In this document: in pieces, positions 123 to 64,000 of the stretch | Position numbering within the stretch: the first letter of the stretch is position 1 | How the letters are laid out: every line of letters starts with the position of its first letter | NCBI GenBank assembly: GCA_963757525.1 | Contig: CAVWRM010000001.1 | Span: 3,591,862 to 3,655,861, forward strand | DNA from: an uncultured Gemmatimonadales bacterium | GTDB lineage: Bacteria > Gemmatimonadota > Gemmatimonadetes > Gemmatimonadales > GWC2-71-9 | DNA length: 64,000 nt | Reading direction: 5' to 3' | Notes under the pieces: model-generated | The model's input: the letters and a program-made list of their open reading frames with translations, nothing else | What the model was told of the DNA's origin: nothing | Databases searched by the model: none | Made by a program: the position numbers and the translations under genes

Positions 123-344
123 ATGAACGCCTCTCGCGAAGCTCGCCTCAAGCCTGAATACGCCCACCTGTATCCCGGCCTCACGCCCGGCGTCTGGTAC
201 AAGGCCGCCTGGTTATCCGCTCGTCAGTTCGCGCGGGAACCCAGCGACGGTGGGGCCGCCTCCATCGCCCGTATGGTCGACGAGAACCACTTCGAATTCC
301 GCGGCGGCAGGCCGCGCCGCGGAGAGCAATCCAGCTCCGGCTAG
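123..344 (+). CDS. small hypothetical protein (REARLKPEYAHLYP...HFEFRGG type)
   Basis: ATG at 123, protein-like composition, converges on the MOSC-DinB gene with a 4-bp overlap. Confidence 0.7.
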   Translation: MNASREARLKPEYAHLYPGLTPGVWYKAAWLSARQFAREPSDGGAASIARMVDENHFEFRGGRPRRGEQSSSG

Positions 345-1306
345 ATCCCGTACCGCGTCCGTAGAGTGTCGAGGTGGTGCCGTTCGTGCCCCGCGATGAT
401 ATACGCCAGCGCCCGTACCGAGATCGCCACTCCGTTGGCGGTCCCCCGCCGGATCCAGGCCTCGGGCGCGAGCCCGCCGAACATCGTGACACTCGCCTTC
501 CGAACCGCGACCCATTCCTCGATGAGTGCATCCAGGCCGAGATCGTCGAAGCGCGCCACGGGGACATAGGCGTTCTCGTCGAAGCCGGGCAGTGGCGTCT
601 CGTCGCCGCGGGCGATCCGGAGCGCCCGATAGGCGAAGATCCGCTCCGTGTCGCTCAGATGGCCGATGACCTGCTTGATGCTCCACTTGCCCGGCTGGTA
701 CCGAAAAGAGCCCCGCTCTCCTGGGATGTTGGCGAGCACCGCGGCCGTGCTCTCCCGCTGCGCCGCCAGGAGCGCGACGATGTCGGCTTCGGGTGGCACG
801 CGGCCGATATACTGGCCGTAGTAGGGGTCGTACTCGTTTTCCACCGGCGGGGCGGTGACACCGTGCTCCCAGGCCACCGGGGCGCCCACGGCGATCGCTC
901 CACCCTCGAGCACCTCGGCGAACGCGCCGCCGCCCCAATCGCTCTTCATGGCGCCGCGCAATCCCGGCAGGGCCTCATCCATCCGCTCGCAGGGACGGGT
1001 CTCGCCGAGAATCCGGAGGCGGCAGTCGCCGATACGCAGCGTGCGATAGGTGGTGCGTGCGAGGGAGAGTCCGCTGACCATCACGTTGGCCCGGCGCGCC
1101 CCGGGCGAGACATCGCCACCGAGCTCCCGCATCAGCCGTTCCCACACTTCCCGTTCGATCAGGGTCACCTGGCGCCGGCGACCCTGATCCGCGCTGCCGA
1201 CGACCCCCCGCCCGGCCGCCAGCTCGGCATCGGGTACCGGGTCCATGGGACCGCGGTGGGCGCGCTTGATCCAGATCGCTTCGACCCGCCCCGTCGCCTC
1301 GGTCAT
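341..1306 (-). CDS. MOSC domain-DinB family fusion protein
   Basis: N-half RQVTLIE...RRANV...TRPCERM (MOSC); C-half YQPGKWSIKQVIGHLSDTE...HERHH (DinB). Confidence 0.85.
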   Translation of the reverse strand: MTEATGRVEAIWIKRAHRGPMDPVPDAELAAGRGVVGSADQGRRRQVTLIEREVWERLMRELGGDVSPGARRANVMVSGLSLARTTYRTLRIGDCRLRILGETRPCERMDEALPGLRGAMKSDWGGGAFAEVLEGGAIAVGAPVAWEHGVTAPPVENEYDPYYGQYIGRVPPEADIVALLAAQRESTAAVLANIPGERGSFRYQPGKWSIKQVIGHLSDTERIFAYRALRIARGDETPLPGFDENAYVPVARFDDLGLDALIEEWVAVRKASVTMFGGLAPEAWIRRGTANGVAISVRALAYIIAGHERHHLDTLRTRYGI

Positions 1307-1321
1307 CTCACCATCTCCGTC

Positions 1322-1606
1322 TTATCCCTCGCTCCCCAACATGTTTCGCCGGCGATAGCTGCCGCACGGGGGATCCCCGATGCGCGCCCCGGCCGGAGTG
1401 GGCGGCACCCACGCATCCACGCGCGCGCTGTCGGCGGCGGTGACGGCGCCGTGGTACCGGTCGCGGCACTCCGAGAGAACGGTGCTCAGCTCCGCCCGCA
1501 TCCGCTGCACGTTGCGTCCCCGCGCGACGAGCCTGATTCCGGCCCCGAGCGCCACGGCGAACAGGACGAGCGCAAGGACCAGGAGTTTCGAGCCGCCCCG
1601 GCTCAC
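1322..1606 (-). CDS. small membrane-anchored hypothetical protein
   Basis: GTG start overlapping upstream TGA (GTGA); N-terminal hydrophobic helix LLVLALVLFAVALGAG. Confidence 0.6.
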   Translation of the reverse strand: MSRGGSKLLVLALVLFAVALGAGIRLVARGRNVQRMRAELSTVLSECRDRYHGAVTAADSARVDAWVPPTPAGARIGDPPCGSYRRRNMLGSEG

Positions 1607-2082
1607 TGCGCCTCGAGCCGCGCGACCGGCCCGTGCTGCCCCAGCAGGTCGAGCCCCCGGGACGAGAGTCGATAGGCGCGCGTCTGGTCCAGTGCGGCCA
1701 CGAAGCCCTGCTCCAGCTCCATGCCCTTGGCGCACGCCATCCTGGTCATGGCAATCGGACCGAGCCGCAGGCTGTCTCCGCTGACCTCGTACGTCCCCGC
1801 TATCCCGTTGCACCCCGCGAATCCCTCGACCCGCTTCCCGTCCAGCGTCAGCTCGAGCGTGGCCACTTTTCCGTCGTTGCCCAGCGGCGCCGGTTTGCCG
1901 TCCAATTCGGTGAGCCGCCAGGTCGTCCCGACGAGCATCGGCTCCTGCGCCACCCCTGAGTCGGCCTCAGCCGCAGGACGCGAGGAGTCGGCGCGGCCGG
2001 ACGCCGAGTTGCCGCGGTCCGTCCCTCCGCACGCCAGCGAGACGGCTAGGAAGCAGGGCCAGAACATGCACAAGGTATTCAT
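1603..2082 (-). CDS. META domain (HslJ-like) lipoprotein
   Basis: lipobox-like SLAC; LVGTTWRLTELDG, GFAGCN, IAMTRMAC motifs. Confidence 0.85.
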   Translation of the reverse strand: MNTLCMFWPCFLAVSLACGGTDRGNSASGRADSSRPAAEADSGVAQEPMLVGTTWRLTELDGKPAPLGNDGKVATLELTLDGKRVEGFAGCNGIAGTYEVSGDSLRLGPIAMTRMACAKGMELEQGFVAALDQTRAYRLSSRGLDLLGQHGPVARLEAQ

Positions 2083-2110
2083 GGAGCGTCCTCGTGGACG
2101 GGATGGCGGC

Positions 2111-2857
2111 CTAGGCGAGCCGGGCGGCACGGATCACCATCGGCCAGGTGACCCGCCGGCGGGTCTCGCGATCGCCCCACTGGGACTGGAGGCGCGCGCC
2201 CAGGGATGACAATGGGTCCTTGCCTCTCGCGACGCGATACCTGGTTACCGCCGACCACGTACCAACGTATCCGAGCACCTCGGCGAGGGTCCAGTCCGCC
2301 GCCATCACGAAATCGGTAGCCGGCAGCTCATCGAAAGGAAAGGGAACGTCCCGGTACCGCTCGTCGACCAGCCTGCGTTGGGATGGCCAGAAGTCGCCCA
2401 CCTCACCGTCGTAGAAATCGCGGACGATCTCGTCGAGACTCCTGTCGCCGAGCTGCATGAGATCGTAACTCCACACCGCGATGGCGCCATCGGGCACCAC
2501 CACGCGGCGCACTTCCGCGTAGAAGGTGTCGTGGTCGAACCAGTGGAGCGCCTGCGCGACGATCACGAGGTCGACGCAGCGAGGCGCGAGAGGCGCCTGT
2601 TCCGCGGAGGATACGATCCGGCACAGTCCGCGGCCGCTCGCCGCGGCGAGCTGGGACCGGCTGATATCCGTGGCGATGACGGATTCGAAGTGAGAACACA
2701 GGGCCAGGGCTGCCTGTCCACTCCCGGCGCCGCAGTCCCACACGCGGCGGCGCTGAGCGGGCAGCCCGGCCAGGTAGGTGAAGAGCGCCGGGGGATAGGT
2801 CGGGCGATAGGCGGCGTAGGCGTCCGCGACGGTCGAGAAGTGGTCGGTATGGGTCAA
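2111..2857 (-). CDS. class I SAM-dependent methyltransferase
   Basis: DHFS..A..YA.YRPTYP, WDCGAGSGQ, AQALHWFD. Confidence 0.9.
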   Translation of the reverse strand: MTHTDHFSTVADAYAAYRPTYPPALFTYLAGLPAQRRRVWDCGAGSGQAALALCSHFESVIATDISRSQLAAASGRGLCRIVSSAEQAPLAPRCVDLVIVAQALHWFDHDTFYAEVRRVVVPDGAIAVWSYDLMQLGDRSLDEIVRDFYDGEVGDFWPSQRRLVDERYRDVPFPFDELPATDFVMAADWTLAEVLGYVGTWSAVTRYRVARGKDPLSSLGARLQSQWGDRETRRRVTWPMVIRAARLA

Positions 2858-2934
2858 CCGTGTCTACCTTTCGAGCTCGGATGAAGCATAGCCGGTTCTC
2901 TCGAACGTCATGATCCGGAAGGAATATCGCTCCA

Positions 2935-3441
2935 ATGAAGTCCGACGAGCTTCGGGCACGCCAGGGGCCGCTCAAGGAACGGTATCGGTCGGATCCCGCC
3001 GCTGCCCTCATCACTCTTCGCGCGGTAGGCAAGATCGGGGGACCGGGCATCAGCTGCCGGGTCGAGACCGGCCGCGCGCTGGTCGAGGCAGGGCTGCACC
3101 CGGCCACCGGCGGCTCGGGGCTCGATGCGTGCTCGGGGGACATGCTCCTCGAGGCACTCGCCGCCTGCGCCGGTGTGACGCTCAGCGCCGTGGCGACGTC
3201 GCTCGCGATCGGGGTCGAAGGGGGGACCATCGTGGCGGAGGGCGATCTGGACTTCCGGGGCACCCTCGGCGTAGCCAAGGACGTGGCCGTGGGCTTTCGC
3301 GAAATCAGGCTCCGCTTCGAGCTCGTGACTCAGGCGACGGCGGAACAGCTCGAGACCCTGCTCCGCCTGACCGAGCGCTACTGCGTGGTGCTACAGACCC
3401 TGCGGACGCCGCCGACGGTCACGGTCACGCGGGCTGCTTAG
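2935..3441 (+). CDS. OsmC family protein
   Basis: CSGDMLLEALAAC...GDLDFRGTLGV...TERYCVV. Confidence 0.9.
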   Translation: MKSDELRARQGPLKERYRSDPAAALITLRAVGKIGGPGISCRVETGRALVEAGLHPATGGSGLDACSGDMLLEALAACAGVTLSAVATSLAIGVEGGTIVAEGDLDFRGTLGVAKDVAVGFREIRLRFELVTQATAEQLETLLRLTERYCVVLQTLRTPPTVTVTRAA

Positions 3442-4046
3442 GGCGTTCCGCGCTTCAGCTCCTTGAGACTGTAGTTGTGCTTCACCGTCCAGGTCCCGGG
3501 AGCCGCGGGATCGGGAATCTCGACCAAACCGTTCGTGGCCGCGGCGAGCGACAGGGCGAACCGCTCGCGGATCCGGCGGCGCGGCCGCCCCTTCGCATCC
3601 ACCGTGGTGATCGTCGTGCTCACCACCGGGATCGCCACGCCGGAGATCAGATCCTCGCCCAGGGCGCCGGTCTCATAGAGAACGCTGTCCCCTCTCGACG
3701 TCACGATCGACAGCGTCATGTCCGGGCCCACCGGCCGCGAAACGGACCAATCCTTGTCTCCCGCCTCCGAGCGGTAGAGCGTATCGCCCGAAACGCAGAC
3801 CCTACTTCGCTCGGGATTCGGATCCGATGGCCGCCGCCGGATAGTCATGCTCGCGCAATCCGCGTTGGGACGGAACGGCTGGCCGGTCTGCACCGAATCC
3901 ACGATCAACGGGGGCTGCGCCCGCCCGTCGGTGAAGTAAAAGAGCTGCGCGCCCGGGTTCAACTGGGAAGCCACCGTGCTTCCCTGCTGCGGCAGCGCGA
4001 CCGAAAGCGCCGCCATCGCGGCACAGACCGTCATGGAAGCGTTCAC
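3438..4046 (-). CDS. secreted hypothetical protein
   Basis: GTGA overlap with upstream gene; signal-peptide-like N-terminus; beta-rich body. Confidence 0.6.
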   Translation of the reverse strand: MNASMTVCAAMAALSVALPQQGSTVASQLNPGAQLFYFTDGRAQPPLIVDSVQTGQPFRPNADCASMTIRRRPSDPNPERSRVCVSGDTLYRSEAGDKDWSVSRPVGPDMTLSIVTSRGDSVLYETGALGEDLISGVAIPVVSTTITTVDAKGRPRRRIRERFALSLAAATNGLVEIPDPAAPGTWTVKHNYSLKELKRGTP

Positions 4047-4495
4047 GGCACCTCCACGCGCAAAGGTTGCGTGGTCACCACGACCGTATGACTGCTCGGA
4101 TCCCAGCGCCCCACCCAGATCTCGTACGGGCCGGGCGCCAGCGGACCGAACTCGGCTTCGTAGACCACCTGCCGCCAGCCGGGCGCCGGCGAGGTGGTCT
4201 GCACGGTCTGTCCCGGCACCGAATCGAACAGTGTCAGTCGAAGCGTGCCCCGCTGGGTCGAGTCCACGTCGCCGTAGAGACCGCCATCCGTGCGCTGCTG
4301 ATCCACTCCCCGGATGGTGATGACTCCATCCAACAGGAGCAGCGTCGGCGCACCCGTGTCGGAAGGAGCAGCGTCCCGAAGAACGCGGAAACCGGACGCC
4401 GATACCGGTGGCGGCATCGGCGGCGGATGATGGGCGCACGCGACGATCGCAGCGATGACCGCCGGCGCCACTACCCTAGGCCACGCCATCGCCAT
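4043..4495 (-). CDS. hypothetical lipoprotein
   Basis: hydrophobic N-terminus ending AIVAC, Pro-rich linker. Confidence 0.65.
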   Translation of the reverse strand: MAMAWPRVVAPAVIAAIVACAHHPPPMPPPVSASGFRVLRDAAPSDTGAPTLLLLDGVITIRGVDQQRTDGGLYGDVDSTQRGTLRLTLFDSVPGQTVQTTSPAPGWRQVVYEAEFGPLAPGPYEIWVGRWDPSSHTVVVTTQPLRVEVP

Positions 4496-4799
4496 CCGGC
4501 GTACTCAACACATCGAAGTGGGTCACCGTCGGCTCGAGCTCCAGCAGAAAGCCGGTGTCTGCCGGATAGTATCGGGCGCGCTCGATGTCGTCTCCGGCAA
4601 ATGCGCGAATGCTTTCCAGCGTGTCCCACAGGCTCGTGAGCAGAAAGTGGGCCACGTCGCCCTCGAGGCGCTTGAAGACGTAGACACCCATGTTGCCCGG
4701 CGTCCGACGATAGTCCGGGATACCCGTCCGCAGCAGATACTCGTAGTACTCCTCCGCGCGTCCGGCCGGTACCCGGCCGTGCCACGTTCGTGCAATCAT
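4476..4799 (-). CDS. antibiotic biosynthesis monooxygenase (ABM) family protein
   Basis: MIARTWHG...TPGN.G...WDTLESIRAFAG...ARYYP. Confidence 0.85.
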   Translation of the reverse strand: MIARTWHGRVPAGRAEEYYEYLLRTGIPDYRRTPGNMGVYVFKRLEGDVAHFLLTSLWDTLESIRAFAGDDIERARYYPADTGFLLELEPTVTHFDVLSTPDGDGVA

Positions 4800-4812
4800 C
4801 GTCGCGACTCGG

Positions 4813-5322
4813 TCATGGGACGTACCGGGCCACGGCCATGGCCGCGGTCGCGAGCACCAGCAGCAGGGAGGCGAACCTCGTCAGCGTGGCCGTGCGGGCC
4901 TGCAGCGACTGCATCTCGGCCACGGCCTCCGGTGCGGGCGGGCCTCCTCCCGTGCGCATCGAGGCCGCCAGCATTCCCAGCCGTCGGGTTGCCGGTGAGA
5001 TGATCACCATCCCGAGGACCGCGACGACGATGCCCAGCAGAGCGCCGGTGCTGAACACGATGCCAGGGCCGGTGCGCATCCATGCCCCGCTGAAGCCGGC
5101 CGAGTCGCGCCAGTACAGCGCGATCCCCGAGAGGATCGTGAGAATTATGGCACCCATCATGTAGAGGGGCAGACGGCGGACCTGGCCGATCTGCTCCATG
5201 ACCGGACCGGCCGCCGGCCCGACCGCCCGCAGGCTGGGCATGAGGAAGAACGCGGTAAAGAGCGCGGCCCCCACCCAGAACGCCCCGGCGAGAATGTGAA
5301 TCAAGCGATACACGAAGATCAT
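4813..5322 (-). CDS. four-TM membrane protein (DUF2269/CopD-like)
   Basis: RLIHILAGAFWVG motif, four hydrophobic segments. Confidence 0.7.
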   Translation of the reverse strand: MIFVYRLIHILAGAFWVGAALFTAFFLMPSLRAVGPAAGPVMEQIGQVRRLPLYMMGAIILTILSGIALYWRDSAGFSGAWMRTGPGIVFSTGALLGIVVAVLGMVIISPATRRLGMLAASMRTGGGPPAPEAVAEMQSLQARTATLTRFASLLLVLATAAMAVARYVP

Positions 5323-5367
5323 GGTCCTGCCTTCCGTGTCTGCGGATGAAGGAGCGGGGGTGCGGGC

Positions 5368-6654
5368 TCAGCCGAGGGGGCGGTCGATCGCGGAACTCTG
5401 CGCCGTGAAGAAGCGGGGACCATCGGCCGTCAGATGGAGGCAGTCCTCGAGGCGGATGCCGAACTCCCCGTAGATCACGATGGTTGGCTCGTCGCTGAAG
5501 CACATTCCCGGCGCCAGAACGGTGGTGTCGCCCCGCACGAAGTTCGGGGACTCGTGGCCATCCATGCCGATGCCGTGTCCCGTCCGGTGCGGCAGACCCG
5601 GCACCTTGTACCCCGGTCCGAATCCGGCGTCCGTGATCACCTTCCGCGCCGCGGCATCCACCGACTGGCAGGTCGCCCCGATCCGCGCCGCGGCGAATGC
5701 CGCGTCCTGGGCGCGGCGCTCGAGGTTCCAGATCTCGGTTTGCCGCGCCGTGGGCGGGCCGAAGACGGTGGTCCGGGTAATGTCGGACTGGTAGCCTTCC
5801 ACCGCGCACCCCGCATCCATGAGGACGATGTCGCCCTCGCGCAGGTGCTGGCTCGCGTTGGTGCCGTGGGGATAGGCCGATGCGACGCCGAAGCCGACCA
5901 GCGCCCAGGGATCGGAACCCCCGAGTCGCTCGAGCGCGGCCATCATGGTGCTGGACAGCTCATGTTGCGTCATCCCCGGGCGCATCGTGGCGAACGCTGC
6001 GCGAAACGCGGCGATGGTGAGATCGCTGGCTCGTTGCATCAGGGCCAGCTCTGCATCGCTCTTGATCTTCCGGCACCCTACCGTGACATCGCGCGCGGCC
6101 ACCCATCGAGTCGCGGGGGCGGCGGTCCGGAGCCCGTCGGCCACGAAGAACCGTACCTGGCCTTCGACCCCGACCTGGCCGGTGGCGATGCGGCGGTCGT
6201 GGAGGACACCCGCCAGCACTGCGTACGGGCTCTCGTCCTCCTGCCAGACCCGGACCTCGGTCGATGAAGAGAGCCGTTCGCGCGCGCGGGCTTCCTCGAA
6301 AGCCGGAGAGATGCAGGCGAGGTCGCCGAGCCGTGGGAGCAGGATCAGGAACGGCCGCTCGGAGAGTCCCCACTGCACGCCGGTAAAATACGTCATGCTT
6401 GTGCCCGGCTCGAGCACGATCGCGTCGATCCGGTTGTCCGCCATGAGCCGGCGGGCCTTCTCCCGCCGCTCCTCCCGTTCCTGATCGGAGATGGGCACGA
6501 TGCCTTTCGTCATCGGGCTCAAGGCGCGAATCGAGGGCGCGAGGGTGCAGGGGTCGGGTGGATCGCTCGCGACGCCAGTCGGGTTCGCGGGCGACCAGGC
6601 CGCGGCGCCGACCAGGCCCGGCACCATGCCGACGAACGAGCGACGGTTCAGCAT
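5368..6654 (-). CDS. Tat-exported Xaa-Pro peptidase (M24B)
   Basis: NRRSF twin-Arg signal; D..GYQSDITRT, HRTGHGIG, EP, IRLED motifs. Confidence 0.9.
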   Translation of the reverse strand: MLNRRSFVGMVPGLVGAAAWSPANPTGVASDPPDPCTLAPSIRALSPMTKGIVPISDQEREERREKARRLMADNRIDAIVLEPGTSMTYFTGVQWGLSERPFLILLPRLGDLACISPAFEEARARERLSSSTEVRVWQEDESPYAVLAGVLHDRRIATGQVGVEGQVRFFVADGLRTAAPATRWVAARDVTVGCRKIKSDAELALMQRASDLTIAAFRAAFATMRPGMTQHELSSTMMAALERLGGSDPWALVGFGVASAYPHGTNASQHLREGDIVLMDAGCAVEGYQSDITRTTVFGPPTARQTEIWNLERRAQDAAFAAARIGATCQSVDAAARKVITDAGFGPGYKVPGLPHRTGHGIGMDGHESPNFVRGDTTVLAPGMCFSDEPTIVIYGEFGIRLEDCLHLTADGPRFFTAQSSAIDRPLG

Positions 6655-6756
6655 GTCCTCAGCCCTCCCGGAGTCGTGCGGGCCACGCGCCATGCCGGAT
6701 CGTCGGCCCGAACCATGTCCCCGCCGCGAGGCCTTCCACCAGCTGCCGCGGACAGG

Positions 6757-8325: not shown

Positions 8326-8341
8326 GCGACCTCGCGATGGA

Positions 8342-9769: not shown

Positions 9770-10308
9770 CCGGCGACCGACCGGGCCATCACCCGGTCGC
9801 ACTGCTGGTCGTTGCCGAGCAGGAAGACTTTGCTCCCCACGTCGACAAACCCGCACTTCCCGTAGAACGCCTTGGCACGCTCGTTACGCTCCCAGACCGC
9901 GAGCCAGATGGTCGCTGCTCCTCGCCGCGCCGCTTCCGCGTCGATGGCTCGTAATAGATCGCGAGCCAGCCCCAGCCCGTGCCAGGGACGATCGACGTAG
10001 AACCTGAGCAGCTCGACGGGAGCGCCTCCCCGCACGGCCTCGGGAGCGGGCCCCTCGCGGAGCTGTGCAAAGCCGGCGAGACGGCCCTCCGACTCGGCCA
10101 CGATCGTCGACATAGCCGGATTGGCGATCTCGACGGCTTGCTGCGCCGGACCATACGCTCTGGCGAGGTACAGCGCCATGTTCTCGGCCGTATTCTCGGC
10201 GGCGAACGCATCGTAGAAGGTGCGCGCGCCCAACTCGGCGAGACGGGCGGCATCGGCGGGCCGGGCGCGGCGGATGGCGAAGTCGGCCTGGTGAGTGTCG
10301 GTGGGCAT
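9766..10308 (-). CDS. GNAT acetyltransferase (PaiA-like)
   Basis: RFYV...HGLGLA, WLAVWERNERAKAFY. Confidence 0.9.
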   Translation of the reverse strand: MPTDTHQADFAIRRARPADAARLAELGARTFYDAFAAENTAENMALYLARAYGPAQQAVEIANPAMSTIVAESEGRLAGFAQLREGPAPEAVRGGAPVELLRFYVDRPWHGLGLARDLLRAIDAEAARRGAATIWLAVWERNERAKAFYGKCGFVDVGSKVFLLGNDQQCDRVMARSVAG

Positions 10309-10430
10309 GGCCCTCGTAGACTGAACGGAACCGCGAGCCGGCGCAAGCGCGGACCCGTCAGCGGGCTCACCCGGCCGGATCTCGAGCACTCGGCGACCCG
10401 GACCCACTCGGCGGCCGGGAAAGGAACGCG

Positions 10431-11602: not shown

Positions 11603-11614
11603 CCGTGCTGCAGG

Positions 11615-54967: not shown

Positions 54968-55084
54968 GGCCCGGAAAACATGCCTCGGGACGGGCGCGGG
55001 CGGAAGGCACGATACGCGTTTGCGATACACATGAGTCGGCGCGCTCGTTCGGGAGTCGGCCGTCCCCTCGGGAGAGACCTCCCC

Positions 55085-56536: not shown

Positions 56537-56742
56537 ACGCCCCCTATGCGCGGACGGACGGGGTCGACATCGTCGACCTCATCCCTCCAGGCAGTTACAT
56601 AGTCACGTGGGGAGAGGTCACCGTGGGAGGCACGACGTATCTTCCCGACCCCGCGACCGCACCCGCGACGATGGATCCCAGGCTCGAGCCATACGAATTC
56701 GTGGTCGTGTACTCCGCCGGGCCCTGAGCGTGGGCGTCCTGT

Positions 56743-57066
56743 TCAGTGCTCGGGTCCGACCCGGCGGGACTCCTGGACCTGTGCCAGTACCCGCTCCGTG
56801 AAGTCCAGGCGCTCCTGCACCTCGGCCAGCTCCTCCCGCAGCTTGCCCACTTCGAGCTCGAGCGCTTCGATCGGTGGCTGGAGCTCGCCCGAAGGCGCCG
56901 TCGTCTGCCGCAGGCGCTGGGCCCAGACTCCGAAGGCCACCGCCAGCGCCGCGTGGATCGCCGCGTGCCACGGCTCGCCGGGTTGCACGGCGAATCCGAC
57001 CGCCACCAGGTTCAGGGCGCTGAGGCCCACGGCGATCGGGTACCAGATCTTCGGCTTGAAGGTCAT
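56743..57066 (-). CDS. two-TM + coiled-coil protein (ERLDFTER.L motif)
   Basis: two TMs; VQERLDFTERVLAQ. Confidence 0.8.
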   Translation of the reverse strand: MTFKPKIWYPIAVGLSALNLVAVGFAVQPGEPWHAAIHAALAVAFGVWAQRLRQTTAPSGELQPPIEALELEVGKLREELAEVQERLDFTERVLAQVQESRRVGPEH

Positions 57067-57255
57067 ATCGCGTCCAATCGGCCCACTGGTGGATCGTTGA
57101 CGGCGACCGCACAGTCCCTCCGAAGCTACAGCTTTACGAAGCTACCCGCGGTTGGTGCCACCGAACTCGCAGCGAGTCGTAGCCTCTCAGCGTCACGGGA
57201 ACGCCGAGAAACAGAACTGACGTCCGGAGAAGGGGTCACCGAATGGTGAAACGGG

Positions 57256-58548
57256 TCACTCCACGAAGTTGGCACATCCCGACTCGTCCGCAATCACCGC
57301 CAGCCCGCCGGAGAGGCCGAAGGCAATGCGACGCGGCATCGCGCCGCAGCTCGTGATCGTCTGCGAGACCGTGCGGGTAGCCACATCGATGATCTGGATC
57401 TCTCCCGGCCCATCGGCGGTGGTGACGCCGGCGTACACGGCGGTGCCATCGGGTGACAAGGCCAGCGCGAACGGCCCACCGATGGTCGAGGTCGCGCCCG
57501 AGGGGATCGAGGTGACCAGCGTGTCTCCCACCACATCGTAGACGTCGACCTCTCCGTTGCCGCCCTCGTTCGCCACGAAGAGCTCGGTGCCGTCGGGCGA
57601 TATGACGATGCCCTGCGGCTGTCCGCCCACGAAGAAGGTGCGGGCAACGGACCCCGTGGCCACGTCCACCTCGGAAACCGTGCCGGTCGTGAAGGAGCTC
57701 GCGTAAAGCAGCGTACCGCCCGCGTCGAGAGCGAGATGATTCACGCGGCTCAGCTCGACGTCGAGATCGATGGATCCCGTTACCTGGGAGGAGGCGGCGT
57801 CGAACACGAGGATCCGCCCATCGTTGGTTCCCAGATACACGGTGTGACTGTCCGGTGCCGTCACGGCGGAGAACGCGCGCACATGCAGCGGGACCCGGCT
57901 CAGGACCCGGTCGGAAGACAGCTCGATGACACTCGCGTCGCTGTTGTCGGGGCCGGTAGGTGTCACGAGCGCGGCACCTCCGGCGAGGAGCGCGATGGAG
58001 GTGGGGCTGCCGCCGAGGTCCCGGGTGGCAAAGCCGGTGACCGGATACAGGTCGGAGGCCACCCGGCCACTGTTGGTTTGCGAGATGAATACCCGACCAT
58101 CGCCGTCCACCGCGGCGCCGAATGGCCCATCGCCCTGGCCGTCGCCGGGCAAGCGCTTGAAGGTGACCGCCGCGGCCAGCGGGTGGCCTGCCCGGAGCCC
58201 GGCATAGACGACGACGGCCAGCAAGCCTTCGCTCGTAGCCCTGATCTCCGCTTCGCCGACTCCGACGTAGCTCACCAGGCCGTCGGGCGTGACGGAGGCG
58301 ACCCCCGGGTCGGTGGAGACGAACTCGATGTCGGCGTCGGAGATGGGTGCGCCGGTTTCGTCCACGACATTCGCCGACAGCCGGCGCGACATCCCCACTC
58401 CAAGGACGAGACGGGATGGCGTGACGACAAGGGAATGTGCGGGGTTGGACGACATCGGCTCGTCGGAGCCGCAGGCCGTGGCCAGCGCCCAAAGGAGCGC
58501 GACCAGGGGTCCCTGAAATCGACGAGGTACGCGGATGCTCGTTTCCAT
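57256..58548 (-). CDS. lipoprotein with Big_2 domain and YncE/YVTN-like beta-propeller
   Basis: ATAC lipobox; STDPGVASV; P.GI.ISPDG..L.VAN repeats. Confidence 0.85.
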   Translation of the reverse strand: METSIRVPRRFQGPLVALLWALATACGSDEPMSSNPAHSLVVTPSRLVLGVGMSRRLSANVVDETGAPISDADIEFVSTDPGVASVTPDGLVSYVGVGEAEIRATSEGLLAVVVYAGLRAGHPLAAAVTFKRLPGDGQGDGPFGAAVDGDGRVFISQTNSGRVASDLYPVTGFATRDLGGSPTSIALLAGGAALVTPTGPDNSDASVIELSSDRVLSRVPLHVRAFSAVTAPDSHTVYLGTNDGRILVFDAASSQVTGSIDLDVELSRVNHLALDAGGTLLYASSFTTGTVSEVDVATGSVARTFFVGGQPQGIVISPDGTELFVANEGGNGEVDVYDVVGDTLVTSIPSGATSTIGGPFALALSPDGTAVYAGVTTADGPGEIQIIDVATRTVSQTITSCGAMPRRIAFGLSGGLAVIADESGCANFVE

Positions 58549-58552
58549 CGCT

Positions 58553-59302
58553 CTAGAGACGCCGGGCTCTCCCATCGGGTGCACAGGCAACGACGACTCC
58601 GAACACCGTGAGCGCCACGGCCAGCGCCGCCATGCCGCCGACCGCGGCGTACCCCAGGTTCCCGGCAAGGCCATGGCGAACCCCACGGAGCCCGTTGAGC
58701 ACCGCCCCGAGTGTCCCAGCGGCGAGCAGGACCAGCACGATTCGCTGGGCTCGCATCCGCTGTGCCGGGGTGTAGACCCGGAGCTCCGGCGGCTGGTCAC
58801 TCACCCAGTCGGTCACCCACGCCACGACCATCGCGAGCCCCACGACCGTGCTGAAGTGCTGGAGGATTCGGAAGACCGCTACGTCTTCACCGGCCACCGG
58901 CACCGAGTGCGCGAGGATGGGCAGGTGACTCACGCCCCAGCCCTTGGCATGGGTGAAGCCGTCCCACACGATGTGGCTGAAGGCTCCGACGAGCACGCCC
59001 GCGGCGACCGCGAGCAGGCCGGTGGCCGGCGCGTTCCAGCGTGCCCCGATGCCGGCTGGGAGCAGCGTGCGCAGCGCGGGACGCACCAGCTTACGAAACT
59101 CCAGCCATGCGGCGACGCCGAGAGGGAGACAGAACAGGAACAAGCCGGGCGGCGAATGCCCAAACCGACCTCGCGGCGCCAGTCGCAGCAGGTACTCGAA
59201 ATCGGGGGCCATCGTGCCGAGCACCAGCGCATCGAGAGGCAGTCTGGAGAGTAGACGATGTAAGGGCCAGGCGGCAGCGGCGTGAGCCGGAGTCAGCGGC
59301 AG
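58553..59302 (-). CDS. DUF4184 family protein, probable CTG start
   Basis: PLTPAHAAAA, G.MAPDFEY, SHIVWDGFTH, LQH.ST..G; CTG at expected Met position after GAGGA. Confidence 0.8.
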   Translation of the reverse strand: MPLTPAHAAAAWPLHRLLSRLPLDALVLGTMAPDFEYLLRLAPRGRFGHSPPGLFLFCLPLGVAAWLEFRKLVRPALRTLLPAGIGARWNAPATGLLAVAAGVLVGAFSHIVWDGFTHAKGWGVSHLPILAHSVPVAGEDVAVFRILQHFSTVVGLAMVVAWVTDWVSDQPPELRVYTPAQRMRAQRIVLVLLAAGTLGAVLNGLRGVRHGLAGNLGYAAVGGMAALAVALTVFGVVVACAPDGRARRL

Positions 59303-59317
59303 AAGTAATCCTCGGAT

Positions 59318-59599
59318 TCAGGCCGGACGCCGGGCGATGGCCAGCAGATGCGCGCTCGCGCCCACCATCGCCGGCTCCACTTCGAGCCTCCGGGCCACGT
59401 CGAGTAACGACGCGCGCCTCCCCGGGTCCGCCATCCGCTCCGATACGTCGGGCAGTATCCAGCCCGGCCCCTCGACCCCGTAGATGCCGGTCACGTCCAG
59501 ACCCGCCCCGCTGACCTCGTTGCCCAGCTCGTCGGGCCGGTGAAAGTATGCCGTGGTGAAGTAGTCGAGCCGATCCAGGGGCCGCGGAGCCTTGGTCAT
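59318..59599 (-). pseudogene. C-terminal remnant of a class I SAM methyltransferase
   Basis: DYFTTAYFHRPDEL...GVEGPGW...ASAHLLAIAR directly after a short N-terminus; SAM-binding core absent. Confidence 0.7.
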
Positions 59600-60021
59600 C
59601 TCCGTCCCGCCCGGGTCTGCTTGCGCTTCGTGGTCCGCCGGGTCGCCGCCGGTGTATCCGGGTCGATCTCCTTTGGAGCCTGACTCCGCCACGCCTCCGT
59701 AATCAGTGAGCGGAGCTCGCCGGCCGTCACGGCCGGAAGCCGGACCAGAACGGCCGGAAATCCGTTGTAGTGCGGCTCGGTGAAGAACTTCTCCGGGTCC
59801 TGCGCGAGCAGAAAGTCCTTGTCGAAGAGGTTGGCAACCCTGAGAGCGACGACCTGAGGCTGCGGCACACGTGGCTTCCTCGGGGCGACTCGCTCCAGCC
59901 ACACCCAGACGAATCCCTTGAGCTTGCCCCTGTTGCGCACGGAGAAGGCGAAACGGCCCGGTGTCTCTTCCGTCTCGGGCAGCGAGAGCGCGATGCGGCG
60001 GACGTCCGCCTGAGTTGCCAT
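59596..60021 (-). CDS. MmcQ/YjbR family protein
   Basis: VRRIALSLP, FFTEPHYNGFPAVLVRL, ITEAW. Confidence 0.9.
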   Translation of the reverse strand: MATQADVRRIALSLPETEETPGRFAFSVRNRGKLKGFVWVWLERVAPRKPRVPQPQVVALRVANLFDKDFLLAQDPEKFFTEPHYNGFPAVLVRLPAVTAGELRSLITEAWRSQAPKEIDPDTPAATRRTTKRKQTRAGRR

Positions 60022-60032
60022 GTGTTCCTCGA

Positions 60033-60218
60033 TTACGGCGATGGGCGGTGTCGCCTCACCTGCTGTCTACCGATTGCGCATGTCTCGCTCACGAGCGCTC
60101 GCAGCGCCCGGTCGATTTGGTCGGCGCGCTCCAGCCGGAAGTGATGGACCTGAGCCAGGTGGCCGTAGTCCTGGTTGAGCTCGTAGAGCGTGGCGAACGG
60201 TGCCACTCGTGGATCCAT
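60033..60218 (-). pseudogene. short, probably chimeric ORF (DinB-like N-terminus)
   Basis: AGGAGG SD; MDPRVAPFATLYELN then unrelated-looking sequence. Confidence 0.4.
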
Positions 60219-60256
60219 GCGCCCTCCTGGGCATGGTGCAGTCCTGCGGGTTCGAG

Positions 60257-60832
60257 CTACAAGCGTCCCAACATGGGGTGATCGAGCCCGCCGCTCATCG
60301 CCAGCCGCAGGCTGTCCTGACACTCCTCGCAAATTCCGTGGGTCAGCTGCGGGGGATACGGCTCATTGAACAGGGATAGCGCGACGACCGCGTCCTCCAC
60401 CTCCAGCCATCCGTTCGGCGGTACCGACACCCGCTTGCACCAGCCGCACATGGTGACGAACAGCTCGGACCGCGGTACGTGCGGGCTCAGGAGCGGGACG
60501 ACATCGCGGTCTTCCTCCTTGACCGTCTGCACCCGATAGCACAGCGTCTCGTGCTCGCCGGCGGAGATGGTGAGCTCCAGCAGCCGACGCCGCTCCGGAG
60601 CGTCGCAGCGAAGCGACAAGCCGATCGGGACGCCGTGGGCCCGAACCCGGCGGTGCAGGATCCGGTAGATGTGCCGCGTCTCGAGGTCGGCGATGAAGTC
60701 CCAAATCGAACGACCGAGGATCACCGGCGGCAGCACCGGCTCGCCGCCGTTGGCCCGGGCGAACGAGAGCCACTCCTCGTTGACCGAGGAGATTTCGTCC
60801 CTGGCGTTCAGCTTGTACAGAAGCGCGGACAT
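60257..60832 (-). CDS. PAS-like domain + CxxC...HGxCxxC protein
   Basis: VN.EW..FA..N, LGRSIWDFI, RCDAP..RR; MCGWCKRV...W.EVE...THGICEEC. Confidence 0.8.
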   Translation of the reverse strand: MSALLYKLNARDEISSVNEEWLSFARANGGEPVLPPVILGRSIWDFIADLETRHIYRILHRRVRAHGVPIGLSLRCDAPERRRLLELTISAGEHETLCYRVQTVKEEDRDVVPLLSPHVPRSELFVTMCGWCKRVSVPPNGWLEVEDAVVALSLFNEPYPPQLTHGICEECQDSLRLAMSGGLDHPMLGRL

Positions 60833-60842
60833 TCAGCTCCGA

Positions 60843-61478
60843 TCATGCGGCCCGCTCGGACAGATAGGCATGCCAGAGGATCCGGGCCGCTACGCCGCGA
60901 TACGGCCGCCACCGTTCGGCCAGCCTCTCCGCGTCGACCAGCGACAAGACTCCATCGAATCCGTGCAACCGGATCAAGGCCTTATGCAACGCGAGGTCAC
61001 CAGGCGGCCAGATGTCGGGACGTCTCAGAGCCATCAGCAGATAGATGTTCGCGGTCCACGGTCCGATCCCCCGAACCCGGACCAGGAGATCGCGGGCCTC
61101 GTCGTCGGGAAACCGGGACAGACGCCGCAGCGGCAGCCGGCCGTCGAGCACCGACTCCGCAAGGCCGACGGCGTAACTTGCCTTCTGCCGGGTCAGGCCG
61201 AGCCTCTGGAGCCCGGGCATCCCGAGCATGGCGATCGTCAGGGGACCGACCTCGCCCAGAGCCGTCTCGAGACGGAGAAATAGGGCCCGCGCCGAAGCGA
61301 GCGACACCTGCTGCTCGAGAATGATGCGGAGCAGCGTGGCGAATCCTGGACGGCGGGCCCAGAGCGGAGGCGGCCCGTAACGCGCCACCAGCCTGGCCAG
61401 CCGCCTGTCGGCGCGAGCCAGCCTCCGGACCGCCGAGAGAAGGGATGCGCGCTGGAGCGTCGTCGGGGGCCGCACCAT
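60843..61478 (-). CDS. alkA: DNA-3-methyladenine glycosylase II (HhH-GPD family)
   Basis: ILEQQVS, VRGIGPWTA, WPPGDLAL, WRPYR. Confidence 0.88.
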   Translation of the reverse strand: MVRPPTTLQRASLLSAVRRLARADRRLARLVARYGPPPLWARRPGFATLLRIILEQQVSLASARALFLRLETALGEVGPLTIAMLGMPGLQRLGLTRQKASYAVGLAESVLDGRLPLRRLSRFPDDEARDLLVRVRGIGPWTANIYLLMALRRPDIWPPGDLALHKALIRLHGFDGVLSLVDAERLAERWRPYRGVAARILWHAYLSERAA

Positions 61479-61635
61479 GGGAGTATAGCCTCTCCGACAT
61501 CTCGCCAACGGGGCTTCGCCGTCCACGCGGGTCCCTCGAAAGCTCCATCTCGAACCGCCCCCCGAGACTCTCCTGCCGGCTGTTCGCGCGATCGGCGTGC
61601 CGGCCGCATCGAGCAGGATCAGGTCGATCCCGTCA

Positions 61636-62151
61636 TCATTCCGCGAGCCGGGTGAAGGCCGGCGGGTACAACGCCGCGCTCCCGTCGAGGTCGCCTGTCT
61701 CGGCATATGTCATCGGCGTGGAGCCGCTCGCCAGGACCCGCCCACCTACCGGCTCCGCCACCACGATCGTGTGGTCGCCGGCGGTGTGCCGGCTCACGAC
61801 GCGGCAATCCAGCCAGGCTGCCGCGTCGGAGAGGACCGGAGCCCCACCGATGCCAGGCTCCCATCGTTGCCCCACGAGCTTGTCGACCGTCCGGCCGGAC
61901 TGGGTGCCGAAATGCCGGGCCAGATCGAGCTGTCCCTGCCGGAGCACGTTGACCGTGAATGTCCCCGCGGCGTTCAGGATCGGAAATGAGGCATGGGTGG
62001 GATTGAGGCTGAGCGCGAGCAGCAGCGGGTCGAAGCTGACCTGGGTGATCCACGCGGCGGTGAAGGCATTGCGCTGGCTGCCGTGGGCCACCCCGACAAC
62101 GTACACCCCGTTGGTGAGGCTGCGGAACAACTCGAGTGGTGTGACGCTCAT
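61636..62151 (-). CDS. flavin reductase family protein
   Basis: GVYVV, TQVSFDP, FTVNVL, AGDHT. Confidence 0.9.
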   Translation of the reverse strand: MSVTPLELFRSLTNGVYVVGVAHGSQRNAFTAAWITQVSFDPLLLALSLNPTHASFPILNAAGTFTVNVLRQGQLDLARHFGTQSGRTVDKLVGQRWEPGIGGAPVLSDAAAWLDCRVVSRHTAGDHTIVVAEPVGGRVLASGSTPMTYAETGDLDGSAALYPPAFTRLAE

Positions 62152-62275
62152 CAATCCGCCATAGGTCGAACCGTCACATTCCATGATCATCGGACTCGCT
62201 GGCATCCCGACGCTTCAGCGAATTCTCACGTGTCGTCGAAGTCTGGTCGCTCGAACCGTGCCGGCAGGAGTGAGG

Positions 62276-62722
62276 TCAGAGCCGCTTCCGATACACGTGT
62301 TGGGTCTTGGTCCGTCCATAGCCGAGCCGCTCGTAGAAGGGATGCGACTCGAGCCGGACGACGTTGCTCCGCACGGACATCTCCGTGATGCCCCGGTCCT
62401 GAGCCCATCGCTCCACGACGCGCACGAGCTGCCGTCCCACACCCACTCCACGATGATCCTGGTCCACCACGAGCCCGAGCAGCTCGCAACGGACAGGAGC
62501 CTCCAGGAACCGCTGCTCCGCCCCGTGCACCCATCCGATCACGACGTCGCCCTCACACCCGACCAGGACGACTTCGTCATCCCGCTCGAGCACCATCCCG
62601 AGACGCTCGGCCATCACGCCGGCAGAGACGGGGTAATCGAGCTGAGCGCTGAGCGCGGCGATGGCGACCCCATCCTCGTCCGTGGCCGGCCGGACCTTCA
62701 TCGGGGGTGAATGCCGCATCAT
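62276..62722 (-). CDS. GNAT acetyltransferase
   Basis: QLDYP, LVVD..HRG.GVG, SH.FYERLGY. Confidence 0.88.
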   Translation of the reverse strand: MMRHSPPMKVRPATDEDGVAIAALSAQLDYPVSAGVMAERLGMVLERDDEVVLVGCEGDVVIGWVHGAEQRFLEAPVRCELLGLVVDQDHRGVGVGRQLVRVVERWAQDRGITEMSVRSNVVRLESHPFYERLGYGRTKTQHVYRKRL

Positions 62723-62724
62723 GA

Positions 62725-63152
62725 CTACCCGCCCGCGAGCCAGATCGAGGGAACGTCCGCCACCGTCTCGACGATATGGGTACGCGGAGCGGCGCGTAGG
62801 GTGTCGCGGTCGTGGGCGCCGGTCAGGACCGCCACCCGATAGGCCACTCCGGCGTTCCTGCCTGCTTCCATGTCCCGCACGGTGTCACCCACCACGGCGA
62901 CGTCGCGGACGTCGATGACCGCGCTCCGCTCCATCGCGCGAAAAATCATGTAGGGGGCCGGACGTCCCTCAGGAACGTCGTCGCTGCAGATGCACGCGTC
63001 GATCTGGTCCGCCCAGTCCACTGCGTTCATGATCAGATCCACGATCTGCCGGTCGAAGCCGCTCGTCACAGCCACTCTGATGCCGGCGGCACGCAGCCGC
63101 GCGAGCGCCTCACCCACGTGCCGCCGAGGTCGAACGCGACGAGGGCGACCAT
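62725..63152 (-). pseudogene. phosphonatase-like HAD hydrolase with internal deletion and frameshift
   Basis: motif I VAFDLGGT in one frame, then TSGFDR, GRPAPYMI, VGDT..D..AG in another; cap domain absent. Confidence 0.75.
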
Positions 63153-63154
63153 GG

Positions 63155-63616
63155 TCAGACCTCGACGCTGTACACGATGAACCCCGAGTGCGTCGCGATC
63201 TGGTCGTACAAGCGGCGGGCGGCCGCGTTCGCTTCCTGCGTCTGCCAGTAGACCCGGCACACACCCGCGGCTCGGGCGCGCTCGTACACCGCGTCGATCA
63301 ATGCCCTCCCGATCCCGCGGCCACGTTCGGCCGGCGCGGTGAACAGGTCCTGGAGGTAGCACGTCAGCTCGAGTCTCGTGGTGCTCCGATGAAAAAGATA
63401 ATGGGCCAGCCCGACTACCCTGCCCTCGAGCGCCGCCACCAGAGCGAACACCGGCTCGGCGGAATCGAAGAAGCGCCGCCACGTTGTGGCCGTCACCTCG
63501 GGTGGCAAGGCCGTGGCGCCGCTCCGGCCGTAGAATGCGTTGTACCCATCCCAGAGCGGTTGCCACCCTGACAAGTCGTCCTGGCGAATCGGGCGAACGA
63601 TCACCGGGCTAGGCAT
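63155..63616 (-). CDS. GNAT acetyltransferase
   Basis: W.PLWDGYN.FY, YLQDLFT....RGRGIG, YWQT...N..ARRLYD. Confidence 0.92.
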   Translation of the reverse strand: MPSPVIVRPIRQDDLSGWQPLWDGYNAFYGRSGATALPPEVTATTWRRFFDSAEPVFALVAALEGRVVGLAHYLFHRSTTRLELTCYLQDLFTAPAERGRGIGRALIDAVYERARAAGVCRVYWQTQEANAAARRLYDQIATHSGFIVYSVEV

Positions 63617-63619
63617 GAC

Positions 63620-63735
63620 TCTTTGGGCCACCCGAAGACGGCAAACCCCGCCTGCGCGACGCTGCCGACGGCCTCAGTCGCAAGACCCTGCCTCGTGTAA
63701 CTGGTGCGGACCCGGTAGCCGACAGCGACATGCAG
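63620..63735 (-). pseudogene. internal fragment of a RimJ/RimL-type GNAT
   Basis: VGYRVRTSYTRQGLATEAV...AGF.VFG with no credible start. Confidence 0.45.
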
Positions 63736-63743
63736 AGGCGCCC

Positions 63744-64000
63744 CTAGACTCGAAAGAGGGTCTGACTCAGCAGAAGCGCCCACCCGTACAGGCCGGCGCC
63801 GAATATCGTGTGAGTCACGAGACTCTTGACTCTGGCCTGGTTCGGCTTCGGCGTCTTCGACGCCGCGACGCCGAGCCCGAAGGAGGGCTGCATGACCAGG
63901 AAAGGAATGAGCGTGGTCACGACGCCGAACGTCAACGCGGGCAGCAGCGTCGGCTGCATGAGCCAGCGTTGCGGCGCGAGCAGGACGAACACCATGGCAA
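63744..64000 (-). CDS. DUF2938 family membrane protein (3' part; start outside window)
   Basis: PTLLPAL..G, PFLVMQPSFGLGVAASKTP, H.IFG.GLY. Confidence 0.85.
   Translation of the reverse strand, partial: AMVFVLLAPQRWLMQPTLLPALTFGVVTTLIPFLVMQPSFGLGVAASKTPKPNQARVKSLVTHTIFGAGLYGWALLLSQTLFRV

Follow-up and report, generated by a model that had tools for sequence, protein, structure and literature searches.

The window analysed here is a stretch of 64,000 nucleotides (C1:3,591,862-3,655,861; window positions carry the prefix w) from the genome of an uncultured Gemmatimonadales bacterium. This genome is labelled G000, while G003, G004, G007 etc. are the genomes of relatives. According to a home-made codon-usage gene caller, 91 genes touch the window, 80 of them on the minus strand, which agrees with an earlier note on this DNA (roughly 80 of about 95 genes). 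At least two ORFs were missed by the caller (w46267-46557 and, near w55.1-56.5 kb, an RCC1-repeat gene on the plus strand). Tandem repeats were considered for an apparent gene gap at w54.9-56.8 kb; none were found, and the gap is the missed plus-strand gene. The following features are distinguished:

w1..64000, minus strand: zone without attC, made up of small accessory genes that are unrelated and mostly single (gene calls, running median length, Pfam, attC search, spacer structure)
Limits of this zone: from ~6.9 kb left of the window (C1:3,585,000) to about C1:3,656,200 (running median gene length)
w341..1306, minus strand: MOSC-DinB fusion gene (Pfam)
w10928-11524, w16032-16517, w32005-32547: further DinB genes (Pfam)
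w9766..10844, minus strand: two adjacent GNAT genes (Pfam)
w39922-40803 (plus strand, MarR-GNAT), w42758-43255, w46554-47168, w62276-62701, w63155-63604: further GNAT genes (Pfam)
w11615..13336, minus strand: glnK-amtB, a conserved two-gene operon within the zone (Pfam)
w20522..20794, minus strand: small membrane protein gene without Pfam match (attC-flanked homologue in G151)
w25438..29822, plus strand: island of a LuxR-family regulator, a flavin monooxygenase-like protein and a PLP decarboxylase (gene calls, Pfam)
w59596..60021, minus strand: YjbR-family gene (orthologues just distal to attC arrays in several Gemmatimonadales)
w2935-3441, w17889-18203, w32758-35022, w36719-38127, w39922-40803, w48079-48255, w49732-51474, about w55100-56536: remaining plus-strand genes

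The recurrence of gene families described in the earlier note is borne out by Pfam, with 7 GNAT, 4 DinB, 3 Beta-lactamase-family (PF00144; the serine hydrolases of that note) and 2 Methyltransf_11 proteins. The 71-kb zone holds 7 of the genome's 20 PF00583 matches and 6 of its 12 DinB_2 matches. Scans of the window with Rfam (gathering thresholds) and for tRNAs gave zero matches. Gene size is a real anomaly of the window. The median is 156 aa, compared to 291 aa genome-wide, which places the window between the 1st and 5th percentiles, and 91 genes are packed into 64 kb, compared to about 55 elsewhere. The least probable account of this anomaly is an artefact, either short ORFs called spuriously in DNA of high GC content or an assembly that is chimeric. 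The gene calls come from a home-made program, some starts are uncertain, and the integron platform described below is present in duplicate on C1 and C2 (98.4%), possibly through the assembly of variants. However, 60 of 89 window proteins have a Pfam family at E<=0.001, zone orthologues with 50-85% aa identity are found in many genomes, and it is the same caller that yields the 291-aa median elsewhere.

Strand bias and gene junctions are properties of the genome background. The thirteen NTGA overlaps that had been listed as a special feature are all present on the minus strand (5 ATGA, 6 GTGA, 2 TTGA), although the one at w20791 is probably an ORF artefact, because a homologue from a congener begins six codons later, at a conserved ATG. 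Among same-strand pairs, 4-bp overlaps are found in 10 of 74 cases in the window (13.5%), in 552 of 2489 on the chromosome (22%) and in 30% in the 3.008-3.584 Mb neighbourhood. They are no signature, because they are less frequent in the window than in the rest of the genome. The strand bias (88%) is below the 95th percentile (0.90) of sliding 91-gene windows and is like that of the flanking bins between 3.33 and 3.71 Mb (64-95% minus). It spans about 400 kb of ordinary genes around the window and therefore needs no integron. At 3.01-3.26 Mb, 5-18% of the genes are on the minus strand, and the bias flips at about 3.27-3.3 Mb, where the cumulative GC skew peaks (~3.26 Mb). In the rest of the chromosome the skew is weak and the bias patchy. 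The mundane alternative of the earlier note, leading-strand bias, would account for the strand bias itself.

Both statistics fit an ordinary accessory-gene hotspot, which we regard as possible, though doubtful. In such a permissive part of the chromosome, small and dispensable genes for stress and detoxification would build up by generic horizontal transfer, duplication and deletion, co-orientation with replication would be selected, and an integron would merely happen to lie in the same plastic region.

The window contains neither an integrase nor attC sites, as had been stated from the letters alone and is now confirmed with Pfam (PF00589) and a covariance model. This model (R1), applied with default filters and with filters off, detected no attC in the window; its best match (16.9 bits) is inside a permease CDS. 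R1 was trained on the attC family of G000 itself, so that very divergent attC types could escape it. No tyrosine recombinase is encoded in the window, and the six PF00589 matches of the genome are all elsewhere. In terms of a complete integron, intI and attC are both absent from the window and both present outside. According to Cury et al. 2016 (PMC4889954), a CALIN comprises two or more attC sites with no integrase. The window differs in having 0 attC sites, and it has no other trace of this kind: paired R-box motifs occur in zero zone spacers, and the hairpin energy of 60-250 nt zone spacers shows no excess over genome spacers (-0.184 vs -0.188 kcal/mol per nt, p 0.92). The complete lack of attC relics is as expected for a hotspot.

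Beyond the right end of the window, where the earlier note had advised looking for a recombinase, an integron is found. The integrase gene (C1:3,703,314-3,704,276, minus strand) begins 47.5 kb beyond window base 64000 and has one in-frame TAG. With the stop read as X, the product scores 415.4 bits with TIGR02249 (cut-off 265); PF00589 and Phage_int_SAM_4 also match. The cassette array (C1:3,672,487-3,702,925, minus strand) begins 16.6 kb beyond the window and was delineated by spacer listing, alignment A1 and fold, regional scan, nhmmer and R1. It contains 22 attC sites (C1:3,678,963-3,702,925, by R1) plus 2 weak relics. Integrase, attC sites and window genes are all co-oriented. attC scores drop toward the window, from 146 bits near intI to 70-92 and finally 17 bits. 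The integrase gene reads toward its array, attC quality decays with distance, and a co-oriented zone of small single genes follows for at least 70 kb. Window and array are separated by a 10-kb block for glycogen metabolism (glgE, glgB, treS-mak). A second intI copy is on C2, and both copies carry a stop codon. A true CALIN is located elsewhere in the genome (C1:1,047,762-1,060,784).

None of the 76 proteins from the three arrays of G000 has a zone paralogue (BLASTP, E<1e-5). Among the array proteins of relatives with any match in G000, the best match is in the zone for 3 of 57, one of them close, which is not clearly above the expected 2.7%. Pfam assignment covered 144 of 191 array proteins from relatives, the other 47 being from G043 and G025, the "arrays" of which contain long genes with few attC sites. 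According to Pfam, toxin-antitoxin pairs and IS elements abound in arrays, and the window has neither. The median protein length is 156 aa in the zone and 127-138 aa in the arrays of G000. GC3 is 0.84 in the zone, 0.73-0.78 in cassettes and 0.865 in the rest of the genome; the zone is intermediate in composition and near-native. Within the zone, composition shows no gradient (Spearman rho -0.03), and therefore any cassette origin must be old. Both the missing paralogy and the nearly native composition fit a hotspot; the intermediate GC3 counts in favour of an integron link.

Gene order and content of the zone were compared with those of congeners. A core control region is collinear in all five congeners; region C1:3.40-3.42 Mb, also tried as a synteny control, has almost no match in five congeners. 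In the zone, order is shuffled, not conserved. For orthologues in G004, G007, G009 and G151, the zone contigs of which share genes with G000 only in part, 12 of 72 neighbour pairs are kept, and orientation is kept in 74 of 77 cases. In the one collinear relative, the differences are insertions, deletions or replacements of single genes; this collinearity result depends on the unpublished genome G003. The comparison indicates that zone units have been gained, lost and reshuffled singly between species with orientation kept, and the earlier idea of a zone of accretion and turnover, in which single genes come and go in a fixed orientation, is supported. The MOSC-DinB fusion has its halves as separate genes in G007, with another gene in between. 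The glnK-amtB pair has 76-81% DNA identity in congeners and is at other genomic places in G004. Random translocation, as in a hotspot, would need very strong selection to keep orientation to this extent.

In horizontal-transfer hotspots, gene content varies between species while the core flanks are conserved. The zone likewise has variable content between conserved flanks. It shares with such hotspots a conserved left anchor (C1:3,586,620-3,591,061, collinear in G003, G004 and G009, as expected between conserved anchors) and the absence of mobile-element genes inside. Its own traits are single-gene modularity, near-total co-orientation and its position on the distal side of an array in several species.

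This position is seen in G151, where a 28.5-kb array is directly followed by 60 genes (median 130 aa, 87% co-oriented), among which no attC was detected with filters off. For 12 of the 60, the best G000 match is inside the zone of the window, and 38 have no G000 match. In G007:C62, G009:C340, G009:C222, G012:C300 and G014:C8, too, window orthologues are on the distal side of arrays and have the same orientation as these. Those of the YjbR-family gene are immediately distal to attC arrays and share their strand in G007:C62, G009:C340 and G151. In 80 loci with homologues, 16 attC matches were detected in 5 loci, all 16 on the strand of the gene, and attC is upstream of the homologue in four of these five. 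In all nine Gemmatimonadales genomes with long contigs, attC sites are solely downstream of intI and on its strand, and the median gene length is smaller after the array than upstream of intI. In G151 and G149, the small-gene zone is on the array side of intI and absent from the other side. This asymmetry counts against a hotspot. In G004, however, some 150 kb lie between the main zone and the attC array, and the two are on opposite strands, which would fit a hotspot.

Between species, the same genes vary in having attC, decayed attC or no attC, which also argues against an ordinary hotspot. The homologue of the w20522 gene in G151 is a true cassette, flanked by attC on either side (63% aa identity across 59 residues, E 2e-19). 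Conversely, a G000 cassette (C1:1051208) is attC-free in G007 (91% aa identity), with homology only from the 5'UTR to the stop codon. For two G000 genes with decayed attC (C1:3673997 and 3677945), orthologues (82%) are found in zones of G004 without attC, at the place orthologous to the second integron. Distal cassettes of G151 carry zone-like enzyme families (TfoX_N, DinB/DUF1572, SnoaL-like).

We lean towards the view that the window belongs to an integron-linked turnover zone, composed at least partly of former cassettes without attC, and that it represents the distal part, free of attC, of the neighbourhood of a sedentary chromosomal integron. New genes would arrive as cassettes on the integrase side and push older ones outward, and the attC sites of the older ones would erode and be deleted. 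The genes left behind could become fixed, ameliorated and tightly packed chromosomal genes, probably transcribed in long co-directional units. Two causes would account for the uniform strand, the fixed orientation of cassette insertion and the replichore-wide co-orientation that covers the flanking ~400 kb. Several observations count against an integron origin: the window is without any attC vestige, array proteins have no zone paralogues, and the cargo differs. The glycogen block between window and array and the remote, oppositely oriented zone of G004 further count against it.

The earlier note had proposed that single genes enter by a non-integron route. A dedicated mechanism by which genes are inserted singly at stop/start boundaries, in a fixed orientation, would fit the single-gene differences at gene boundaries and the absence of attC from the window. 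We consider it highly improbable. The window has no recombinase, transposase or boundary repeat, no conserved junction motif was found, and 4-bp junctions are commoner elsewhere in the genome. Such a route is unneeded, as the adjacent integron does exactly such a job. It is also very unlikely, though a little less so, that the direction is reversed and the zone is a source of new cassettes, with small co-oriented genes beside the array acquiring attC. The origin of cassettes is described as unknown in PMC4889954, and the coexistence of cassette and attC-free versions of the same genes, as well as the zone-like families in G151 cassettes, would be compatible with this direction. However, attC quality falls rather than rises toward the zone, cassettes are less native in composition than the zone, and no mechanism or intermediate was seen.

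The integron-linked reading can be taken further, albeit tentatively. The integron might feed the Gemmatimonadales chromosome like a conveyor, on which cassettes drift outward, lose attC and accumulate in a lasting compartment, co-oriented and at least 70 kb long, with a third to half of the genome's GNAT and DinB genes. Cassette domestication might then be readable from genome comparisons in this order. If the zone is cassette-derived, the contribution of the integron to the genome would be far above what array counts indicate (about 100 genes vs about 50-60 recognisable cassettes). Integrons have mostly been studied as attC-bounded arrays, integron-finding tools stop at the last attC, and the fate of cassettes after mobility is rarely traced. 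The zone may show what becomes of captured genes after loss of their recombination sites. Integron integrases above the curated cut-off are encoded in 115 of 201 sampled genomes of the order, which would therefore offer a natural setting in which to date the decay of attC and the domestication of genes. Should the zone be an ordinary hotspot instead, the first reading is still corrected with respect to 4-bp junctions and strand bias.

Large Vibrio-type arrays typically carry acetyltransferases and other small enzymes. The window shares with them the gene size and the families GNAT, DinB, SnoaL, cupin, NUDIX and isochorismatase; it differs by the absence of toxin-antitoxin pairs and attC and by its near-native codon usage. 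In a literature search that covered few subscription journals, no description of such attC-free zones or detailed account of Gemmatimonadota integrons was found, although one review names this phylum among the carriers of integrons (PMC8618304). For sedentary chromosomal integrons, transcription of intI toward the cassettes is described as the "atypical" Treponema denticola-type layout (PMC3607928). The locus next to the window shares with this type an IntI-family integrase, attC on the intI strand, small promoter-poor cassettes, toxin-antitoxin modules and IS insertions. It differs in that a further compartment of at least 70 kb, without attC or intI in the window, extends past the array and in that both intI copies of G000 have a stop codon. 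The idea that platforms are inactivated and arrays turn static is shared with work on CALINs, decayed integrons and the Xanthomonas integrons with inactivated integrases (bioRxiv 10.1101/2025.06.18.660453). These accounts, in the parts drawn on here, describe the loss of intI and not the wholesale loss of attC with genes retained as a large compartment. According to PMC5371416, 25 of 30 sedentary integrons have their attC bottom strand on the template for the leading strand. The sense strand of the array cassettes in G000 is the strand with negative GC skew, which agrees with the rule as stated there.

The window occupies C1:3,591,862-3,655,861 in a genome of three contigs (4.11 Mb, 68% G+C). 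Genes were called by codon-usage log-likelihood, with the long ORFs of this genome as training set, and one caller was used for both the window and the genome statistics. It returned 3,715 genes genome-wide at a coding density of 90.7%. The window had been described, in an earlier note, as a near-unidirectional, cassette-like array of small unrelated genes. The array-like appearance is real. Of the 91 genes touching the window, 80 are on the minus strand, and the reported family counts match Pfam (7 GNAT, 4 DinB, one of them fused to MOSC, 3 PF00144 serine hydrolases and 2 Methyltransf_11). The remaining families are unrelated small enzymes (META, OsmC, NUDIX, SnoaL, YCII, RidA, cupin, HD, deaminase, isochorismatase, UDG, flavin reductase and HAD), and 29 of 89 window proteins are without a Pfam family. 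The zone, which is the small-gene stretch of ~71 kb that includes the whole window, makes up 1.7% of the DNA and holds 7 of the 20 genome matches to PF00583 and 6 of the 12 to DinB_2. An integrase had been reported as lacking, and no tyrosine recombinase was found in the window; Rfam families and tRNAs were not found there either.

At least two genes were overlooked by the caller (w denotes positions counted from the first window base). A plus-strand gene at ~w55,100-56,536 codes for a lipoprotein with RCC1-like repeats, which account for numerous short, multi-copy matches to other genomes at the DNA level; another is the ORF w46267-46557 on the minus strand. Instead of the MOSC-DinB fusion (w341-1306, minus strand, 321 aa), the relative G007 (contig C47) has two genes of 180 and 152 aa, with a 70-aa gene in opposite orientation between them. 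The fusion has thus probably arisen by deletion.

The 13 gene junctions listed earlier all show NTGA on the minus strand. As a hallmark of the window, however, 4-bp overlaps do not hold: they occur in 10 of 74 same-strand pairs (13.5%) versus 22% for the chromosome and 30% for the 3.008-3.584 Mb region, and the median spacer is 44.5 bp against a background of 15 bp. At least the one at w20791 is probably not real, because the congener homologue starts at a conserved ATG six codons downstream. The strand bias of 88%, also taken as distinctive, is a regional property. Bins of 64 kb are 64-95% minus at 3.33-3.71 Mb and 5-18% minus at 3.01-3.26 Mb, and the cumulative GC skew has its maximum at ~3.26 Mb on contig C1. 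Neither the 4-bp junctions nor the strand bias sets the window apart from the background of this genome. Gene size is the outlier. The median is 156 aa in the window versus 291 aa genome-wide; among sliding windows of 91 genes, this ranks between the 1st and 5th percentile, and 69% of the window genes are below 200 aa. This anomaly spans from near C1:3.585 Mb to the contig end. Gene strands on C1 converge at ~3.27-3.3 Mb, at the skew maximum; the strand bias is extreme only at ~3.0-3.7 Mb, the rest of the chromosome being patchy with weak skew. A 20-kb stretch at C1:3,400,001-3,420,000 has normal-sized, strongly co-oriented genes with almost no DNA match in five congeners, and may be a large strain-specific island.

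A search for a recombinase beyond the window ends had been proposed. When the right flank was annotated over 72 kb, a split tyrosine recombinase was encountered (C1:3,703,314-3,704,276, minus strand). This is an intI, which scores 415.4 bits with the integron-integrase model TIGR02249 (cut-off 265) when its single in-frame TAG is read as X. To its left, spacers between small minus-strand genes carry an element of ~135-140 nt that is bounded by GCCTAAC and GTTAGGC and has paired arms with bulges; judged by these features, it is a classical attC. A covariance model (R1, the source of all bit scores below) was built from 13 copies and detects 22 attC sites at C1:3,678,963-3,702,925, all on the minus strand. 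Their scores drop with distance from intI, from 100-146 bits via 70-92 bits to two relics. These relics and the other attC-bearing regions are as follows.

C1:3,672,487-3,673,170: two 17-bit attC relics (R1)
C2:250,458-268,874: second attC array, preceded by another intI copy that has the same TAG
C1:1,047,762-1,060,784, plus strand: third attC cluster, ~9-10 sites without a nearby integrase (CALIN)

The last relic is 16.6 kb, and intI 47.5 kb, from the window end; a glgE/glgB/treS-mak block lies between window and array. Transcription of intI is directed toward its own cassettes, a layout also described for Treponema integrons (PMC3607928). An inverted 7.3-kb block is shared by the C1 and C2 ends (C1:3,702,433-3,709,754 and C2:243,624-250,951, 98.4% identity). 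Within it are intI, with the same TAG in both copies, the region upstream of intI and the first two attC sites; several cassettes are common to both arrays at 97.5-99.8%. Either a true duplication or the separate assembly of two variants would explain this. A CAP12/Pycsar-type TIR effector domain protein (310 aa; C1:3,674,616-3,675,545, plus strand, equivalent to L009:18755-19684) is encoded in reverse to the surrounding decayed cassettes. Further on, the array is broken by two IS110 and two IS3 copies. The CALIN falls into a small-gene bin (median 209 aa).

Several results argue against the window genes having originated as cassettes. That attC is lacking in the window was borne out, R1 giving nothing credible there with filters off. 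Window spacers of 60-250 nt have no hairpin excess over spacers elsewhere, while array spacers are more structured. None of the genome's own 76 array proteins has a paralogue in the zone. Among 57 array proteins from relatives with any match in this genome, the zone provides the best match for 3, only one of them close, and 12 match array genes. Toxin-antitoxin pairs and IS elements abound in arrays, and Pfam finds none of them in the window. The GC3 of the zone (0.84) is nearly native (rest 0.865, cassettes 0.73-0.78), and there is no composition gradient within the zone. In the relative G004, a long distance separates the main zone from the array, and the two are on opposite strands. Relatives' cassettes share a modest set of families with the window (GNAT, DinB/DUF1572, TfoX_N, PF00144, two SnoaL-like, flavin reductase), as scored on 144 of 191 proteins. 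Such results would fit an ordinary leading-strand hotspot in which the integron is merely housed, an explanation that we rank second and regard as possible rather than probable. Strand does not separate the readings. According to PMC5371416, sedentary integrons show an orientation bias relative to replication (25 of 30), with which the orientation of our array agrees; therefore, a hotspot and an integron-fed zone both predict the observed strand.

R1 matches are present in 14 of 21 relatives, and of 201 genomes sampled in the order, 115 have an IntI above the curated cut-off, a tally that counts the genome under study and one unpublished genome. DNA searches with three 20-kb window segments (w1-60,000) gave single-gene matches only, scattered over contigs; the core region taken as control (C1:2.30-2.32 Mb) shows collinearity in all five congeners. 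The proposed gene turnover is seen in the relatives. Window orthologues (at least 50% aa identity) occur in similar small-gene zones, with order shuffled and orientation kept. Relative orientation is consistent for 74 of 77 orthologues (22/22 in G007:C47, 19/19 in G009:C241, 19/21 in G004, 4/5 in G009:C222 and 10/10 in G151), but only 12 of 72 consecutive pairs are neighbours in our genome, and many zone genes have no counterpart between genomes. On its left side, the zone has an anchor (C1:3,586,620-3,591,061) that is kept in G003, G004 and G009. The sole collinear relative, G003 (orientation 33/33, adjacency 27/31), differs in the zone by single-gene insertions, deletions or replacements; these statements depend on an unpublished genome, and their publication requires the depositors' consent. 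We conclude that small genes do turn over one unit at a time with their orientation preserved, and that this turnover is linked to the distal side of integron arrays across the genus.

In the congener G151, a 28.5-kb attC array comes after intI and leads directly into a stretch of 60 genes (median 130 aa, 87% co-oriented) in which R1 finds no attC with filters off (best 12.7 bits). Twelve of these 60 genes match our genome best within the window zone. Of the 41 genes upstream of intI, 37 are ordinary core genes. Window orthologues are also distal to, and co-oriented with, arrays on G007:C62, G009:C340, G009:C222, G012:C300 and G014:C8. In nine genomes with long contigs, R1 places attC solely downstream of intI on the intI strand, with none in 40 kb upstream, although it may overlook divergent attC in other genera. 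In all nine, genes after the array are shorter than those upstream of intI, strongly so in five and slightly in four; being related, these genomes are not independent samples. We lean towards an integron-fed zone of fixed former cassettes as the somewhat more probable explanation. Post-array compartments free of attC were not described in the literature searched, which did not cover the older Xanthomonas/Vibrio literature and most subscription journals.

Some genes are seen both with and without attC. The G151 homologue of w20522-20794 (63% aa identity over 59 residues) is attC-flanked on both sides. The gene at C1:1051208 has attC on both sides and is a cassette in G151 too, and its G007 counterpart (91% aa identity) is attC-free; DNA homology to the latter begins ~43 nt before the start codon and ends exactly at the stop codon. 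Two genes beside decayed attC (C1:3673997 and C1:3677945) have 82% orthologues in a co-oriented, attC-free small-gene run of G004, at ~9-16 kb within C1:1,870,001-1,890,000. The run occupies the place orthologous to the C2 integron, has neither intI nor attC, and may be a fully eroded integron. Cassette proteins from C1:3,688,120 and C1:1,053,036 are 95% and 100% identical to proteins from another G004 locus (C1:1,630,001-1,650,000), while ordinary orthologues between the two genomes are ~75-80% identical at the DNA level, which indicates that cassettes have recently been exchanged in the genus.

Relatives of the YjbR-like gene (w59596-60021, minus strand) were collected from 80 loci. Five of these, one of them not independent of a contig analysed before, contain 16 attC hits, all on the strand of the gene and upstream of it in four of the five. 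Relatives with 67-76% protein identity are found in contigs labelled Planctomycetota, Isosphaeraceae and other phyla (loci L113, L114, L118, L121, L125 and L127). Because such identity is unusually high across phyla, this sequence comparison suggests lateral movement of the gene.
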